From positions 1 to 24,259 of the IMG/VR virus record IMGVR_UViG_3300008255_000462: 24,259 nt of DNA; one strand, given 5' to 3'. The stretch is from a virus (taxonomy: Duplodnaviria > Caudoviricetes). Shown piece by piece: positions 3,370 to 9,904 of this stretch. Position numbers and translations under genes: made by a program. Below the pieces are notes generated by a model. That model worked only from the letters and a program-made list of their open reading frames with translations, did not search any database and was not told the origin of the DNA. Position 1 is the first letter of the stretch. Every line of letters begins with the position of its first letter.

Positions 3370-4242
3370 TTAAACCTTGGTTGAACGGATCTCAACACCG
3401 AATTCTGGACGAAGTGTCTTAACACCATAAATGATGTCAGTGACAACTTTGTCAGCAAGCATGTCTAAATCGTATTCCATTTGGACTCTTGGAGCTAATT
3501 GCATAGCTAAGGCCCAAGCTTCTTTGTGGATCAACACGTTATGTACGTAGTTGGTTGTACCTGTTGAGATAGCTACATTATTAGTGTAGTAAACAGGGAT
3601 ACCATACAAAGTACCGAACATAGATCTACTTGAAGGACCATCTTGAACTCTTGTTGGGAGATCATATTGGCCTAGGAAGTCAGCTTTAACGAACTTGTCG
3701 ATTGCCATTAATGCAGTCATTTGACCAGCATGAATGATGAAACAACGATCTTCCATAGGAACATCTTGTAGTTCTAGTTGCTGAATACCAGCTAGGATAG
3801 ATGCATCAGTGATGTCGGATTCGTAAGAACCTACGTCAGTATTAGTGAACCCTGTATAGAGTGCTAATAGGTCAGTGTCGACTGCCTTTGCGATCTGATA
3901 GCCTGCTCTTGAAGTGTACTCACTTGTGAGGTCATATTTGGATTGTTTAGCCAATTTGTCCTCGATAGCAAATGCAACATACTTGTGTTGATCGATAGAA
4001 ATATCTACTGAAGTTTCAGTGATAGTGTCTAAAGTAACATTAGTGTTAGCAGACTTATCTCTAGCGGAATCAAAGTTAGAAATATTAGGTACGTGAATCA
4101 CGTCTCCATATTCTGCTGACTCAGCATCAAATCTTTTTACTTTTGGAGCTACGACTAATGCACTTTCGGTTGCAACGATGGTCGATTGACTCCATACTTC
4201 TGGTATAAAACTAGCAGAAGTTGTGGTTGTAAAATTTGCCAT
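3370..4242 (-). CDS. Major capsid protein (HK97 fold; P22-coat/N4-gp56/T7-like family)
   Basis: FIPEVWS, GDVIHVP, ISIDQHKYVAFAIED, AGYQIAKAVDTDLL, GTLYGIPVYYTNN, HKEAWALAMQ and DIIYGVKTLRPE. Strong SD GAAAGGT; follows the scaffold gene. Confidence 0.92.
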   Translation of the reverse strand: MANFTTTTSASFIPEVWSQSTIVATESALVVAPKVKRFDAESAEYGDVIHVPNISNFDSARDKSANTNVTLDTITETSVDISIDQHKYVAFAIEDKLAKQSKYDLTSEYTSRAGYQIAKAVDTDLLALYTGFTNTDVGSYESDITDASILAGIQQLELQDVPMEDRCFIIHAGQMTALMAIDKFVKADFLGQYDLPTRVQDGPSSRSMFGTLYGIPVYYTNNVAISTGTTNYVHNVLIHKEAWALAMQLAPRVQMEYDLDMLADKVVTDIIYGVKTLRPEFGVEIRSTKV

Positions 4243-5290: not shown

Positions 5291-7612
5291 CTACGATGTA
5301 GGCATTTGATTACCTGGCCCTCCTAATAATGCTGATGCTGTTGGAGGTAATTCTGGTACTCCAGCACTAAATTGAGCTATGTCTGGAACTGATGGTGGCA
5401 TTGGTGGCATCATGTTTGGAGCTGGTTGTGCTAATCCCATTGTAGGATCTTGCATAACTGGAGGTGGTAATGGACCTGTTGGTGGCATTGGTGGCATCTC
5501 GTTAGCTACAGGAGCTTGGGTTGGCTGGATTGATGCTCCACCGCCCTTCTGTGCTCTTCTATGTTCCTGTACATGTGACATTATCTGCTTCTTGTTTTCA
5601 TCTTCAATAATAGAAGTATGAATAGCAATATGTAGTTCATGGTCATCTGTCTCAGGATCAACTGGAACTGGAGAACCTTCCATTAACATCTCATTCTCTG
5701 CCAATGCTAACTGCTCCTGGCTAATACCACTTGGCATCTCTGGAGCTTCTTTTCTCTTCATCTCGACTAAGGCCTCAACCCTTGTCTTGTCCACAATATC
5801 TTGGATATCTGGGAACTCGAAGTATTTTAGCACTGTTTCTTTATCAATCAATCCTGCTTCTGCCATATCTAATAAGACTTTTTGTCTACCTTCTTTGGTG
5901 TAAGCTAACCATGATCCAATACTGACACTTAACTCATTATTATAAGCAATCTGGGCCAATGGATATTTCTCTTCACCAATGGTCCACTTCTCTTTATCTT
6001 CAGCAATGAAGCCTTCACCGACAACTGCAAAGTGTTCAACTAATCTACCTGTACCAACAACCTTCTTGACTCTTGGTGTGTCGTAGTGTTTAGCAACTTT
6101 TTTAAGAACCTTGTCTCCAAGTCTCATTAAACATTCCTCAAGGTTCTGTACCAAGTCATCTTGGTTAGTAGAATCTGATTGTTTAAGTTCAGCAATTCCA
6201 ATACCAGATTTAATAGCTGAAGGAACTCTACCTAGAGTTGCATCGTGAACTCCAGCAATATCTTCCATGTTGGTTCTTGTTCTAGCTAATTGTTGTTCAA
6301 AAGAAGAAGGTAATGGAGTTATTGGTAAACCTTTAACTTCTGCTCCCCTATTCTTTTCAATAATAGATCCATGTTCATTAACAATAGCTCTGACTCCAGA
6401 GTTCTTATCAATAACTAGTCTACCCTTAGCAAATCTATAGTGGTAATCAAACATTGAGGATTCTAAAGCATTGTAAACTCTGTTCATTGCAATGACGTGT
6501 CTACTCCATGATTCACCATACATTTCAAGAGGATTCATATCAGCCTGGAAGATCTCCATGTCGTAATACTCTTGGTCAATGGTCTCAAATCTTAGAGGTT
6601 CTGGGATCTCATTGGTCCAGGTAAGAACCTCTATCTTTACATTACCATCATCATCAAATGTCTTTTCTTGTAGTTCATAAAGAATAGTAGTTTCATTATC
6701 AACTGTTTGTTGTTGGCTATCTTGGATAGTCTGAATCAAGAACTGTTTGTATTCACTCTCAGCTCTCTTTAAAGTACCACCTGTTACTGAGTCTCTTATC
6801 TTGTCTTTGTATCTAGGATCTGTCTTAATCTTATCAATGTCTGTTCTAACAGCCTTAATAACAAATGAGGCTTCTTCCAGGTCTGTAGCATTTGGATCAA
6901 AGTATATATCATAGGGATCATGGAGTCTGATTCTAACTTCTCCCCTTGGTTGATTCTTACCGTTATCAAAATCTTCATCCCAATATGTCTCGAATGGGCC
7001 ACCAACTGAAAAGAATAATCCTTGAGTAACAGCATCTTTAACTAACTTGGTTAAGTTATTTATCTTGAATATGTGGTCCAAGGTCTTACCAGCTAATCTA
7101 GCATTACTCTCTGATTTCTTTCCTTTAAACTCTGGAAGAACTTCCCATTTAGGCTTGAATGATGTTACCTGGTTCTTAATAGATCTAGCGAAGGCCCAAG
7201 TCAAGTTGACTGGAATTTTAGAGTTAGCTTTAGAACTCATGGTGATAGAACCTGTTCGTTGGTTATTAGATACGAATTGATACCCTCTTCTGAACAAGTC
7301 TCTACTTAACCATTCTCTATCATACTTACGTCTAGCATTCTTAGCATAGGCAAGTAATCTCTTAGCACGTTCTAGTTTCTCAAGGCCCTTAGCTTTCTTA
7401 GCCTCTTCTTCATCTTCTTTTTCACCCATGGCATTCTTAATAGCCTCTTCATCTACTTCTTCTTTATCTTCTGATTCATCTTCTGTAGATTCTTCTACTT
7501 CACTCTCAACTGGTTTAACTTCTTCTTTGTAAGATTGATCTTCAACATCTTGAGTCTCTTCGATCTCTGTTTCTAATTCTTCTGGTTTGATTTTGGTGGA
7601 TTTTTTAGGCAT
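5291..7612 (-). CDS. Portal protein (P22-like)
   Basis: 773 aa after TerL. KIPVNLTWAF, HDPYDIYFDPNA, YGESWSRHVIAMNRVYN, MEDIAGVHDATLG..PSAIKSGIGIAELKQ, DDHELHIAIH and a Pro-rich tail. Confidence 0.9.
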   Translation of the reverse strand: MPKKSTKIKPEELETEIEETQDVEDQSYKEEVKPVESEVEESTEDESEDKEEVDEEAIKNAMGEKEDEEEAKKAKGLEKLERAKRLLAYAKNARRKYDREWLSRDLFRRGYQFVSNNQRTGSITMSSKANSKIPVNLTWAFARSIKNQVTSFKPKWEVLPEFKGKKSESNARLAGKTLDHIFKINNLTKLVKDAVTQGLFFSVGGPFETYWDEDFDNGKNQPRGEVRIRLHDPYDIYFDPNATDLEEASFVIKAVRTDIDKIKTDPRYKDKIRDSVTGGTLKRAESEYKQFLIQTIQDSQQQTVDNETTILYELQEKTFDDDGNVKIEVLTWTNEIPEPLRFETIDQEYYDMEIFQADMNPLEMYGESWSRHVIAMNRVYNALESSMFDYHYRFAKGRLVIDKNSGVRAIVNEHGSIIEKNRGAEVKGLPITPLPSSFEQQLARTRTNMEDIAGVHDATLGRVPSAIKSGIGIAELKQSDSTNQDDLVQNLEECLMRLGDKVLKKVAKHYDTPRVKKVVGTGRLVEHFAVVGEGFIAEDKEKWTIGEEKYPLAQIAYNNELSVSIGSWLAYTKEGRQKVLLDMAEAGLIDKETVLKYFEFPDIQDIVDKTRVEALVEMKRKEAPEMPSGISQEQLALAENEMLMEGSPVPVDPETDDHELHIAIHTSIIEDENKKQIMSHVQEHRRAQKGGGASIQPTQAPVANEMPPMPPTGPLPPPVMQDPTMGLAQPAPNMMPPMPPSVPDIAQFSAGVPELPPTASALLGGPGNQMPTS

Positions 7613-7890
7613 TATCTGATTATGTTAATGGGTTTCTTCACTCCGTCTACTACTACCTCTGATACTTTTCTGATATCAAAATCTTCTCCTGGAGTTGCTA
7701 AATCATTCTGTTCCATAACAACATTTTCAGACGGAGATTTAACCGTTTCTGATTTCCTAGCTCTATGATATTCAGTAATATCTACTGATTTGAGTAGTTC
7801 TTGGAGTTTTGTGACTTGTAGAAAATGTATTATTTCTCTCAAGGTCATGAATGTTATTAGTGATATGATCGTGACAATTTCAAAGTTCAT
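7612..7890 (-). CDS. Hypothetical protein with an N-terminal hydrophobic segment
   Basis: 92 aa beginning FEIVTIISLITFMTL. TAATG coupling to the portal gene. First gene after the attenuator. Confidence 0.7.
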   Translation of the reverse strand: MNFEIVTIISLITFMTLREIIHFLQVTKLQELLKSVDITEYHRARKSETVKSPSENVVMEQNDLATPGEDFDIRKVSEVVVDGVKKPINIIR

Positions 7891-7896
7891 ATGTAT

Positions 7897-7932
7897 AAAA
7901 AAAGACAGCTCTAGATAAATTCTAAAACTGCC
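7897..7932 (-). terminator. Intrinsic terminator (attenuator) in the head-operon leader
   Basis: GGCAGTTTTAGA-ATTTA-TCTAGAGCTGTC followed by T7. The 12-bp stem has 3 G.U pairs that only form on the minus strand. Confidence 0.85.
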
Positions 7933-7951
7933 TACGGTTTCTCCGACAAGC
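7930..7951 (-). promoter_or_regulatory. Candidate antiterminator hairpin overlapping the terminator 5' arm
   Basis: GCTTG(T)CGG-AGAAA-CCGTAGGC. Its last GGC is also the first 3 nt of the terminator stem. Confidence 0.6.
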
Positions 7952-7962
7952 TACTTTATTTA

Positions 7963-7992
7963 AGTATATACTGATTATATTCAAAATGTCAA
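7963..7992 (-). promoter_or_regulatory. Sigma70-type promoter for the head operon
   Basis: TTGACA (7987-7992, overlapping the upstream TGA) - 18 nt - TATACT (7963-7968). Confidence 0.75.
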
Positions 7993-8195
7993 TCTTTTTC
8001 CCTAATTGGTGGAGGGTTCATCTTATAGATGCTTTCCTCTGACACCTTCATTGTGGCTATTTTTCCATTCTGGGCAGAGAAAATCAATGTTACAGTACCC
8101 CATCTTCGATCAATTAGTTTATCCAATGACTCAGCAACAAGCCTATTAGCCTGTATTAATTCTGGATTTGTCTTTAATTTATCTTGAATAGGCAT
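7989..8195 (-). CDS. Small protein resembling DUF2292/YezD; candidate RNA-binding antiterminator
   Basis: 68 aa with a helix followed by RWGTVTLIFSAQNGKIATMKVSEESIYK, similar by eye to the (F/Y)GSVxIxV..xGKVxxI pattern. It sits directly upstream of a promoter/attenuator. The ORF is solid; the family call is tentative. Confidence 0.55.
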   Translation of the reverse strand: MPIQDKLKTNPELIQANRLVAESLDKLIDRRWGTVTLIFSAQNGKIATMKVSEESIYKMNPPPIREKD

Positions 8196-9040
8196 TAAAA
8201 GTATTCTCCTATGCTCATTCCTTTATCTCTCATAATGTCATTAACTCCGCCTGTTTGTTCAGATCCACCAACAATAGGAGCTAGTTCTAGGAAGTTAGTA
8301 AGTAAGTATTCCATTGAGTCAAAGATATTATCATAATAGTTATCTTTCAGTGGTTCTTCTTTTAGTGGCTGGCCCTGCTTCTCTTCTGGGAATCTATATC
8401 CACCCTTAAATCCATTAATGATTCTCTTACAATCTGGATGGATTAATAACCCAACCTTACCATCATTTCTTCTCAACAATCTCTGTCGAACAATTTCTAG
8501 TTTCTCCTGGATATTACTTGGCTTACTAGTTGGATATATTCCTAATGAATTAAGAACCTCAACACTTGTAAACTCACTCTTATCAGTCTTTTGATGGCCA
8601 GCTGGATCGCAAGCATCTAGCCATTTAGCATTAGGGAACTCATTATTGCTAATATTCAGAACTCTAGTTCCAAAGTCTTTAATACCTTCATCTTCTCCTA
8701 GGATCTCACGTCTAACTAAGAACTGGTCCTCTTCATTCATCCATCCAATAGTAACTGCTGGCCTATGATAGCCAAAGTCCCAACCACGATATACAAACTT
8801 AGTAGGCATTGGTTCAAAATCAAAGTTAGCTATATGAAGATCTTCTTTAAACATCTCAAAGACTGGCTTACCTTCAAATGTATCGTAGTCTATTTCATAC
8901 TCACGATTCCAAGATCTATCAGAGATACCACGCTTGGCATTTTCTATCCATTCTTTATTGTTCTTATCAGGATCAACAGAATAGTGTAGTCGTAATACAC
9001 AAAACTTATTCTTGGGATTCCAGCGTGGTTTAAGAATCAT
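8195..9040 (-). CDS. terL: Terminase large subunit, C-terminal part (lid + RNase H-like nuclease)
   Basis: LHYSVDPDK, WNREYEIDY..FEGKPVF, YRGWDFGYHRPA, ACDPAGHQ and KDNYYDNIFDSMEY. Confidence 0.85.
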   Translation of the reverse strand: MILKPRWNPKNKFCVLRLHYSVDPDKNNKEWIENAKRGISDRSWNREYEIDYDTFEGKPVFEMFKEDLHIANFDFEPMPTKFVYRGWDFGYHRPAVTIGWMNEEDQFLVRREILGEDEGIKDFGTRVLNISNNEFPNAKWLDACDPAGHQKTDKSEFTSVEVLNSLGIYPTSKPSNIQEKLEIVRQRLLRRNDGKVGLLIHPDCKRIINGFKGGYRFPEEKQGQPLKEEPLKDNYYDNIFDSMEYLLTNFLELAPIVGGSEQTGGVNDIMRDKGMSIGEYF

Positions 9041-9249
9041 ATGTTCTCCTCGAATATCTTCTTGATTTTATCCACATTAACATCAATACCTTTATCTTCA
9101 GCATTTAAGAACTCACAAGCATTCTCATACTTTGATTCAATCTCTCCAGCCATCATCCCCCTAATAACTTCAATTGGTATAGAATATCTAGCTCCATTTG
9201 GAGTTTCTATTTTCACGTGGTATTTATCTTTAATTACTTTAAGTTTCAT
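9037..9249 (-). CDS. Hypothetical 70 aa protein inserted between the two TerL halves
   Basis: Likely start is ATG 9249 (MKLKVIKDKY), overlapping the ATPase gene end. It ends with an ATGA overlap onto the nuclease gene. Confidence 0.65.
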   Translation of the reverse strand: MKLKVIKDKYHVKIETPNGARYSIPIEVIRGMMAGEIESKYENACEFLNAEDKGIDVNVDKIKKIFEENI

Positions 9250-9904
9250 CGTAGACCGTTCTCCAAAACCACTCTCTTCCATTTGGTGTACTTAGAGCCA
9301 TAAACTTACCACCACCAATTAGTGATGGTTGGGATGCTTCAAATACCTTCTCAGCCTTATCCTGGAACGAAGCTTCGTCAAGAATAATCAGTGAAGAGGT
9401 ATAAGAACGAACCTGGTCTGGACCTTGAGGAATACCTTGGATGATAGAACTTCTCTTAGACCATTTCATCTCCAGATATTTATCTGGATCTCTGTTATAT
9501 CTCTCTTTCATTTGTTCTGGTAATCTCTCATAGATAATCTTACATCTATCAATAAGAGCATTGGCATCCTTCTCTTTCTTACTCATTAAGAAGGTTCTTC
9601 TTCCCTCTTTAAACATTGTATCCCAAAGAGCAATTGCACAAGCAATCCATGAGGCCATCATCTGTCTAGTTTTCTCAATAACAATTAAGTCCTCAGTCAT
9701 GAAAATATCACAAATGTCTCTGATATATTCCTTCTCTGGAATTAAATTAAATGGAGATTCTAATCCTTTGCTCTTCCAGTGTTCATCCTGGGTATAGCAA
9801 AAACGTGTTAGAAAGAAGTAGGGATCACGAATAGCACGATCAATCTCTATTCGTGTAGTAAGTTTTCCAGCTTGTTTGATTAATTGGCTTAATGTATCCG
9901 TCAT
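9239..9904 (-). CDS. terL: Terminase large subunit, N-terminal ATPase part
   Basis: DPYFFLTRFCYT, IVIEKTRQMMASW (Walker A variant), MSKKEKDA, LIILDEASF (Walker B) and LSTPNG (motif III). Confidence 0.88.
   Translation of the reverse strand: MTDTLSQLIKQAGKLTTRIEIDRAIRDPYFFLTRFCYTQDEHWKSKGLESPFNLIPEKEYIRDICDIFMTEDLIVIEKTRQMMASWIACAIALWDTMFKEGRRTFLMSKKEKDANALIDRCKIIYERLPEQMKERYNRDPDKYLEMKWSKRSSIIQGIPQGPDQVRSYTSSLIILDEASFQDKAEKVFEASQPSLIGGGKFMALSTPNGREWFWRTVYDET

Follow-up and report, generated by a model that had tools for sequence, protein, structure and literature searches.

How the head genes of a phage are switched on when they stand behind both a promoter-like site and, directly after it, a predicted intrinsic terminator is the question raised by the locus described here, together with the part that a small protein encoded immediately ahead of this leader might play. 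The window, that is, the whole stretch of DNA that was analysed, is a 24-kb piece of the genome of an uncultured tailed phage (46% complete). A first-pass annotation had read the arrangement as a switch, in which a DUF2292/YezD-like protein binds a hairpin overlapping the terminator and turns on portal and capsid expression. The RNA half of that interpretation is well supported by the sequence comparisons presented below; the protein half, in which the 68-aa protein is the antiterminator, we infer from adjacency, from co-occurrence, and from the hairpin found behind DUF2292 genes.

Gene order and leader elements in the window

The genes of the minus strand run in the order terminase small subunit, ATPase, nuclease, 68-aa ORF, a gap of 98 nt, 92-aa ORF, portal, and major capsid protein (Table 1), and all of the elements that the first-pass annotation had listed on this strand are found where it had placed them. 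The start of the 68-aa ORF overlaps the stop codon of the terminase nuclease gene. The product of the 92-aa gene has no Pfam or PHROGs family, and homologues of this gene are seen by eye in related loci.

Table 1. Genes and leader elements around the intergenic gap (window coordinates).
Feature	Position	Strand	Remark
Terminase large subunit, ATPase half	9239..9904	(-)	family search
Terminase large subunit, nuclease half	8195..9040	(-)	separate gene directly 5' of the small gene
68-aa small protein gene	7989..8195	(-)	candidate hairpin-binding factor
-35-like hexamer TTGACA	7987..7992	(-)	contains the TGA stop of the small gene
-10-like hexamer TATACT	7963..7968	(-)	18-nt spacer after the -35
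Hairpin (predicted antiterminator)	7930..7951	(-)	lower stem of 4 bp and upper stem of 3 bp on either side of a 2x1 internal loop; A-rich loop of 5 nt
Predicted intrinsic terminator	7897..7933	(-)	12-13 bp stem and U7
92-aa gene	7612..7890	(-)	hydrophobic N-terminus, first gene behind the leader
Portal protein gene	5291..7612	(-)	P22/SU10-like, behind the leader; family search
Major capsid protein gene	3370..4242	(-)	further along the same strand; family search

The terminase large subunit is split, with an 81-aa ORF sitting between the ATPase and nuclease genes (window 9904-8195, minus strand), and the split is also present in the related loci L002 and L025. Stand-alone terminase nuclease genes of about 280-300 aa form a large family (95 matches), and nuclease genes of 610-650 aa occur in L002 (895-2727), L038 (2560-4434), L046 (3250-5208), and L112 (3287-5128), the insert in L002 resembling an intein. 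Elsewhere on the minus strand of the window, a cluster upstream of the packaging genes (20790-13720) encodes glycosyltransferases, a nucleotide-sugar epimerase, a methyltransferase, and a hexapeptide-repeat transferase, perhaps for virion or DNA modification; a SET-domain gene (1380-934) and a Hint/intein-containing gene (947-3) follow the head genes; and a long non-coding stretch (23380-22650), with stem-loops carrying U-tracts and with TTGACA sites, lies upstream of the early genes.

The two promoter-like hexamers agree with the consensus at 11 of 12 positions and form one of three equal-best sites among 24 in 10 kb. Looser promoter sites number 24 in comparison with 34.9 in shuffles, so that the hexamers by themselves match no better than chance would give in DNA this rich in AT; the site carries weight because it is conserved across loci. 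With the usual sigma-70 spacing, transcription starts 7 nt past the -10 hexamer, and a start at this place would give a terminated RNA of about 60 nt, the length that the first-pass annotation had proposed and that the positions of promoter and terminator bear out.

The terminator stem (7933-7903) consists of 12 bp and a closing A-U pair and folds at -15.7 kcal/mol (z -4.70), a stability equalled by 0 of 200 shuffles, and it alone among 11 terminator-like sites has 13 pairs. Its U7 tract (7903-7897) is followed 6 nt later by the ATG of the 92-aa gene at 7890, and no purine-rich ribosome site was found between the two. The hairpin ahead of the terminator is modestly stable in relation to shuffles (-8.4 kcal/mol, z -2.45), and the 3' arm of its lower stem is formed by the first four bases of the terminator. 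The overlap between the two structures, already noted in the annotation, is real, but the shared stretch is AGGC, of 4 nt, and not GGC. Moreover, the G-U pair and bulged U that had been drawn in the hairpin give way to a 2x1 internal loop, which fits better because this position reads A.A or A.C in four of the seven loci of the family. No Rfam family was matched by the window at the gathering score or by the leader at E below 4, no RNA holder was listed for the leader, and the window contains no second copy of the hairpin and terminator.

The hairpin in related loci

DNA of the family was reached through protein scans, which led to L002 and L025, and through scans with an alignment of the terminase nuclease, from which the best 80 of 157 viral loci, and 3 genome contigs, were taken. 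The family profile detects the small protein in the window and in L002, L025, L031, L032, L044, and L046. In all seven, a TTGAC/TTGAT promoter pattern is located at the end of the small gene, the hairpin is made of a 4-bp stem, a 2x1 loop, a 3-bp stem, and an A-rich loop of 5-6 nt, the 3' arm of this hairpin opens the terminator, and a tract of U7-8 stands directly behind the terminator stem. The bases between the -35 and -10 hexamers are not conserved among the loci. Three further loci considered as relatives (L027-L029) turned out to be chance peptide matches.

The covariation for which the first-pass annotation had proposed a test is present in the hairpin. On a MAFFT alignment of the seven loci, 49 of 49 cells are paired and six of the seven pairs have changes on both sides, a covariation score reached by 0 of 500 shuffles, with slid registers being 18-45% paired, although these controls flatter the structure, which was derived from the same seven sequences, L002 and L025 being close kin. 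RNAalifold recovers the same hairpin helix unaided. The shared tetramer varies among the loci (AGGC, AGGA, AGAC, UGGC), yet both of its pairings are kept. The alignment holds four G-U cells and no A-C cell, which points to the RNA of one strand and not to a DNA palindrome.

A descriptor made from the seven loci finds one site in the window, where 0.1 would be expected; elsewhere in the loci it picks up two stray matches, both AT-rich. An exact scan of viral contigs for the hairpin gave a single match, within an unrelated coding region; the combined pattern of promoter and hairpin gave 18 matches, one of them real (the L002 contig) and 17 with the upper stem unpaired; and a second pattern, of hairpin and terminator, gave five, three already known and two unpaired and without the small gene. 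Outside the terminase-defined set, no further locus came from these pattern scans of viral contigs.

Regarding energetics, the terminator is the minimum-energy fold of the full leader in all seven loci, forcing the hairpin form costs 1.3-6.2 kcal/mol, and the pair probability of the hairpin's lower stem in the full leader is at most 0.08. In the nascent piece alone, the hairpin with its lower stem is the best fold. The 3-bp upper stem is compatible with the terminator in six of the seven minimum-energy folds. Shuffles of the upstream bases fold equally well onto the terminator arm in 0-4 of 300 cases (six loci, stricter finder), and a loose overlap test is passed by 11 of 41 terminator-like sites taken as controls. 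Overlap of an upstream hairpin with a terminator is thus common as such, and the argument rests on the conserved geometry.

The small protein, its possible DUF2292 relatives, and its co-occurrence with the terminator

The family of the small protein has 20 members in a large protein search, the window's included, and for four of them the DNA was covered as well. The model of the 68-aa protein (pLDDT 85) shows two helices (residues 3-9 and 12-30) and then a beta-hairpin (34-42 and 45-54), and the model of DUF2292 shows a helix (15-27) and a beta-hairpin (32-39 and 42-50), the comparison being one of secondary structure only. A helix and beta-hairpin are seen in both, but the Pfam model itself is not matched: PF10055 (cut-off 22 bits) finds 0 of the 20 members at E up to 10, which leaves the proposed DUF2292/YezD membership unconfirmed. 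DUF2292 has no match in the window's record, the 68-aa protein has no Pfam or PHROGs family, and no OscA model (NCBIfam) is among the 4 families listed for the 20 members at E up to 10. The best PF10055 score among 13 small ORFs of related loci is that of L110, at 15.5 bits (E 0.013). In profile-profile comparisons with 8 bacterial DUF2292 proteins, the close family reaches a probability of 10% (P 0.003) and the broad phage set one of 65% (P 6e-5), and a profile of 8 bacterial DUF2292 proteins places 12 of 19 phage small ORFs among the best 5% when 933 ORFs are ranked, with the 68-aa ORF at rank 12, an enrichment in which the small ORFs are homologous and, therefore, not independent. The 68-aa protein looks like a remote relative of DUF2292 and not a member.

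Net charge ranges from -3 to +4 over the 20 members and is +2 in the window, near neutral and not basic; the 68-aa protein is without cysteine, and the family has no conserved Cys set. The nearest named atlas cluster, DUF2292 (30% of members), scored 0.79, with nothing at 0.9, and serves as a lead only. No relative of the small protein was found in the species genomes or GenBank phages searched, a DUF2292 query returned nothing from the phages or plasmids searched, and a fold search gave 0 viral matches at E 0.001, the best solved structure having Z 4.3. In L110 (1120-1370), a 44-aa ORF with a weak DUF2292 match starts at a promoter-like site and is apparently leaderless, and a different bulged hairpin lies behind it, overlapping a long terminator; a promoter before the gene would permit self-amplification.

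In the phylum of G001 (Actinomycetota by label), 7 of 151 genomes carry true DUF2292 genes, as do 26 of 113 genomes of one class, tallies that include five unpublished genomes whose loci were left out; the 201 genomes searched from the phylum of G002 yielded none. A hairpin lies within 200 nt downstream of 20 of the 22 DUF2292 genes of one class; two 3-bp stems in it flank a 3x2 inner part and the loop has 4-6 nt, the same geometry as in the phage hairpin, and random windows drawn from these loci match a loose descriptor of it in 63 of 440 cases. In the wider phylum sample, six of eight DUF2292 loci are without such a hairpin (by eye). When scored with a sequence-only profile of the bacterial hairpins, the window's hairpin comes 3rd among 20,360 positions and four other phage hairpins come at 4/17662, 6/15518, 42/9258, and 168/10388, all in the top 2%. 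The profile misses two of the seven (L002 and L025), and, being GC-rich, it favours any GC-rich spot in AT-rich DNA. The hairpin behind the DUF2292 genes of L118, L119, and L127-L150, as far as these come from published genomes, is nearly invariant in sequence.

None of the 20 bacterial leaders has a stem and U-tract terminator behind the hairpin, and in 10 of the 20 the predicted fold pairs the 5' strand of the hairpin with the GGAG that precedes the start codon or with bases next to it (by eye). The bacterial hairpin is likely a translational switch for the next gene. In phage and bacteria alike, the ON state would be the one with the hairpin formed; this supports a protein that holds the hairpin and, at the same time, keeps alive a translational role for the phage leader.

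To follow the leader together with the small protein, 53 of 83 terminase loci were kept (27 near-copies and 3 short or broken loci were dropped), and L025 and the window were added. Of the 19 loci with such a small gene, 16 have a terminator separating nuclease and portal, versus 2 of the 36 that have no such gene, or 2 of 22 of the latter when only gaps of at least 150 nt are counted. The terminator is found in 12 of the 15 loci with a profile-detected small protein (seven of seven in the window's own family, five of eight in a sister family) and in four of four distant loci with a small ORF picked by eye, two of which were judged similar after the terminator had been seen. The 15 profile-detected loci group with L038 in a single clade of the nuclease tree. 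Across this tree only four changes of the label are needed, which makes about four independent events, so that a Fisher value overstates the co-occurrence. Far from the window's clade, three lineages gain or lose protein and terminator jointly (proteins by eye). A merged profile of the three protein sets does not raise L063, L086, L110, or L112 above background, so that the small proteins of these four are recognised by eye only.

The sister-family protein and that of the window's own family compare at 5% in profile-profile terms, and the sister-family leader keeps only a hairpin of 3 bp with a 5-nt loop at the foot of the terminator, in which 21 of 21 cells are paired, with two both-side changes and 7 of 500 shuffles scoring as high (L038 included). 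The joint change of protein and RNA between the sister families counts as one event on the tree. In two sister-family loci, L036 and L040, the U-tract that accompanies the hairpin is weak, and L035 keeps the sister-family protein with no terminator before the portal gene. Homologues without the hairpin and terminator, which the first-pass annotation had named as evidence against its reading, are thus missing from the own family, where seven of seven loci keep both, but the sister family includes one (L035, of eight loci). The leader of L035 seems to have been lost while the protein was retained; after its small gene (2510-2560), an extended -10-like site is followed 5 nt later by an ATG, with no hairpin or terminator. 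In L038, promoter and terminator are present and there is no small gene on its 6.8-kb fragment. In L034 (5090-5860) and L039 (5399-6050), extra genes lie between the small gene and the promoter-leader, and the leader stays beside the head genes. In L099 (6146-6250), a terminator-like hairpin is followed directly by tRNA-like sequence before the portal gene (by eye).

Readings of the leader and comparison with known systems

In the preferred reading, the leader would work as an attenuator that the neighbouring 68-aa protein opens by holding the hairpin. Transcripts from the leader promoter, as well as read-through from the terminase genes, would stop at the U-tract by default. The small protein, encoded by the last gene of the terminase transcript and presumably translated in tandem with the nuclease, would bind the nascent hairpin and withhold four bases from the terminator, and the held hairpin would leave a shorter stem, four bases back from the U-tract, for which poor termination is predicted. 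Expression of the terminase operon would in this manner turn on the portal and capsid genes, in a cascade and not in a self-amplifying loop because the promoter lies at the end of the small gene. On sequence evidence, we give this reading somewhat better than even credence; that the leader is an attenuator, whichever factor opens it, seems quite probable. The main points against the preferred reading are the near-neutral charge of the protein and the loci L035 and L038. The leader is a real, uncatalogued RNA element of a known logical kind, with a plausible, putative protein partner.

The same protein and hairpin might instead act mainly on the translation of the first gene, with the foot of the long stem left unpaired near the ATG. 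This is suggested by the distance that separates the ATG from the tract's first U, which is 7-13 nt in six of the seven loci (22 nt in the seventh), by the window having no purine-rich ribosome site, by the bacterial leaders without a U-tract and the pairing at or beside GGAG in half of them, and by the precedent of Mu Com on mom mRNA, as given in the accessible text of PMC6483171; nevertheless, it is unlikely, since the U7-8 tract directly follows the stem in all seven phage loci, the terminators of L063, L086, and L112 end 19-22 nt before the portal start, and a switch acting purely on translation would reach a single gene, whereas the entire head cluster stands behind the leader. It is also fairly unlikely that the attenuator is opened by a host protein or by a phage zinc-binding protein and that the 68-aa gene has another job, for example in packaging or head assembly. 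Small Cys-rich ORFs are located upstream (12493-12161, 12717-12493, 10522-10280, and 10278-9901), L038 has the leader without an adjacent small gene, and the 68-aa protein is not basic; however, none of the four zinc-protein stretches scanned matches the Com family at E up to 10, a related hairpin stands behind bacterial DUF2292 genes, and protein and terminator co-vary in the three distant lineages, in which the proteins were recognised by eye.

The leader could also lack any switch, the terminator ending the terminase operon or leaking and the RNA of about 60 nt, or its hairpin, being the product, as a decoy or an assembly RNA. Promoter and terminator do delimit a short transcript in which the upper stem coexists with the terminator in six of seven minimum-energy folds, but the lower stem covaries though incompatible with the terminator (probability at most 0.08), and selection on a helix excluded from the terminated RNA calls for a second state, which makes the lack of a switch very unlikely. 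Finally, the protein might act on promoter DNA or on the polymerase in the manner of lambdoid Q, the hairpin being a DNA operator or a pause signal. Q, too, has a terminator close to the promoter and ahead of the late genes, and the promoter overlaps the end of the small gene in all seven loci, but such an action is scarcely probable in view of a hairpin with G-U and no A-C pairs, of a spacer whose bases are not conserved, and of a 68-aa protein for which no Q-like family was found, there being no similarity to Q in Pfam or PHROGs. A structural comparison with 48,161 solved chains gave none that reached Z 5, which says little about a Q-like fold either way.

Beyond the proposed opening of the attenuator by the 68-aa protein, DUF2292 and a wide range of unrecognised helix-plus-hairpin proteins of 45-80 aa might tentatively, at somewhat less than even credence, be one superfamily of stand-alone RNA-binding switch proteins, each with a cognate hairpin of about 22 nt, that would release a terminator ahead of the head genes in phage and free a ribosome site in some bacteria, protein and hairpin co-diverging. 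This superfamily, if true, would include a minimal phage late switch unrelated to Q, N, and RinA-type activators. If right, the proposal would also give a function to DUF2292-like small proteins, add a protein-held RNA hairpin to the short list of phage head-gene timing devices, and provide a very small part set consisting of a 68-aa protein, a 60-nt leader, and natural base-pair-swapped variants.

In phage lambda, Q works with pR'/tR', where a strong promoter is followed by a nearby terminator, the default RNA is short, the late genes lie behind, and the regulator gene is upstream, and this layout resembles that of the window's leader. Q loads on the polymerase through a DNA element; unlike in Q, the conserved element here is a covarying RNA hairpin that overlaps the terminator. 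The 68-aa protein is like DUF2292/YezD (PF10055) in its size, in its helix and beta-hairpin, in the geometry of the downstream hairpin, and in the aromatic-Gly that opens strand 1 and the Gly at the turn, and unlike it in a strand 1 that is two residues longer in the 68-aa family, in a helix-strand link that is three longer, and in an N-terminal NPEL helix cap specific to this family. Moreover, the sampled bacterial DUF2292 leaders are, unlike the phage leader, without U-tract terminators. DUF2292 is mentioned in passing in the accessible text of PMC7921472, DUF2292 and OscA are absent from the accessible part of a 2025 review of RNA-binding antiterminators (PMC12591593), and the element is not described in the literature covered on DUF2292, YezD, OscA, and phage antitermination leaders, which was drawn mostly from journals outside subscription and from main texts.

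As in the Com/mom system of Mu (PMC6483171), a small phage protein, whose binding is predicted here, would meet a short hairpin that adjoins a competing structure close to a start codon; unlike Com, which is a zinc finger and a translation activator, the 68-aa protein is cysteine-free, and the competing structure has a terminator U-tract. In the BglG/SacY/LicT-RAT systems, as presented in the accessible parts of PMC5393181 and PMC12591593, an internal-loop hairpin whose 3' end starts an intrinsic terminator is found, as in the leader studied here, and hairpin and terminator are mutually exclusive, as predicted here in all seven loci, the terminator winning unless the hairpin is held by a protein. 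The RAT hairpin to which LicT binds has 6-10 nt in common with the terminator, and the loss of its basal stem decides the outcome (PMC5393181, accessible part). Unlike RAT, which has two conserved internal loops, the leader described here has one 2x1 loop and shares 4 nt, and it precedes a phage head cluster. Unlike BglG, SacY, and LicT, described there with a four-stranded CAT domain of 55 aa and PRD domains, the 68-aa protein is predicted to have a helix and a beta-hairpin and no regulatory domain, and it has no Pfam match to CAT or PRD domains. Neither the protein nor the RNA is part of the LicT-RAT family, though the logic of the leader would match that of these systems.
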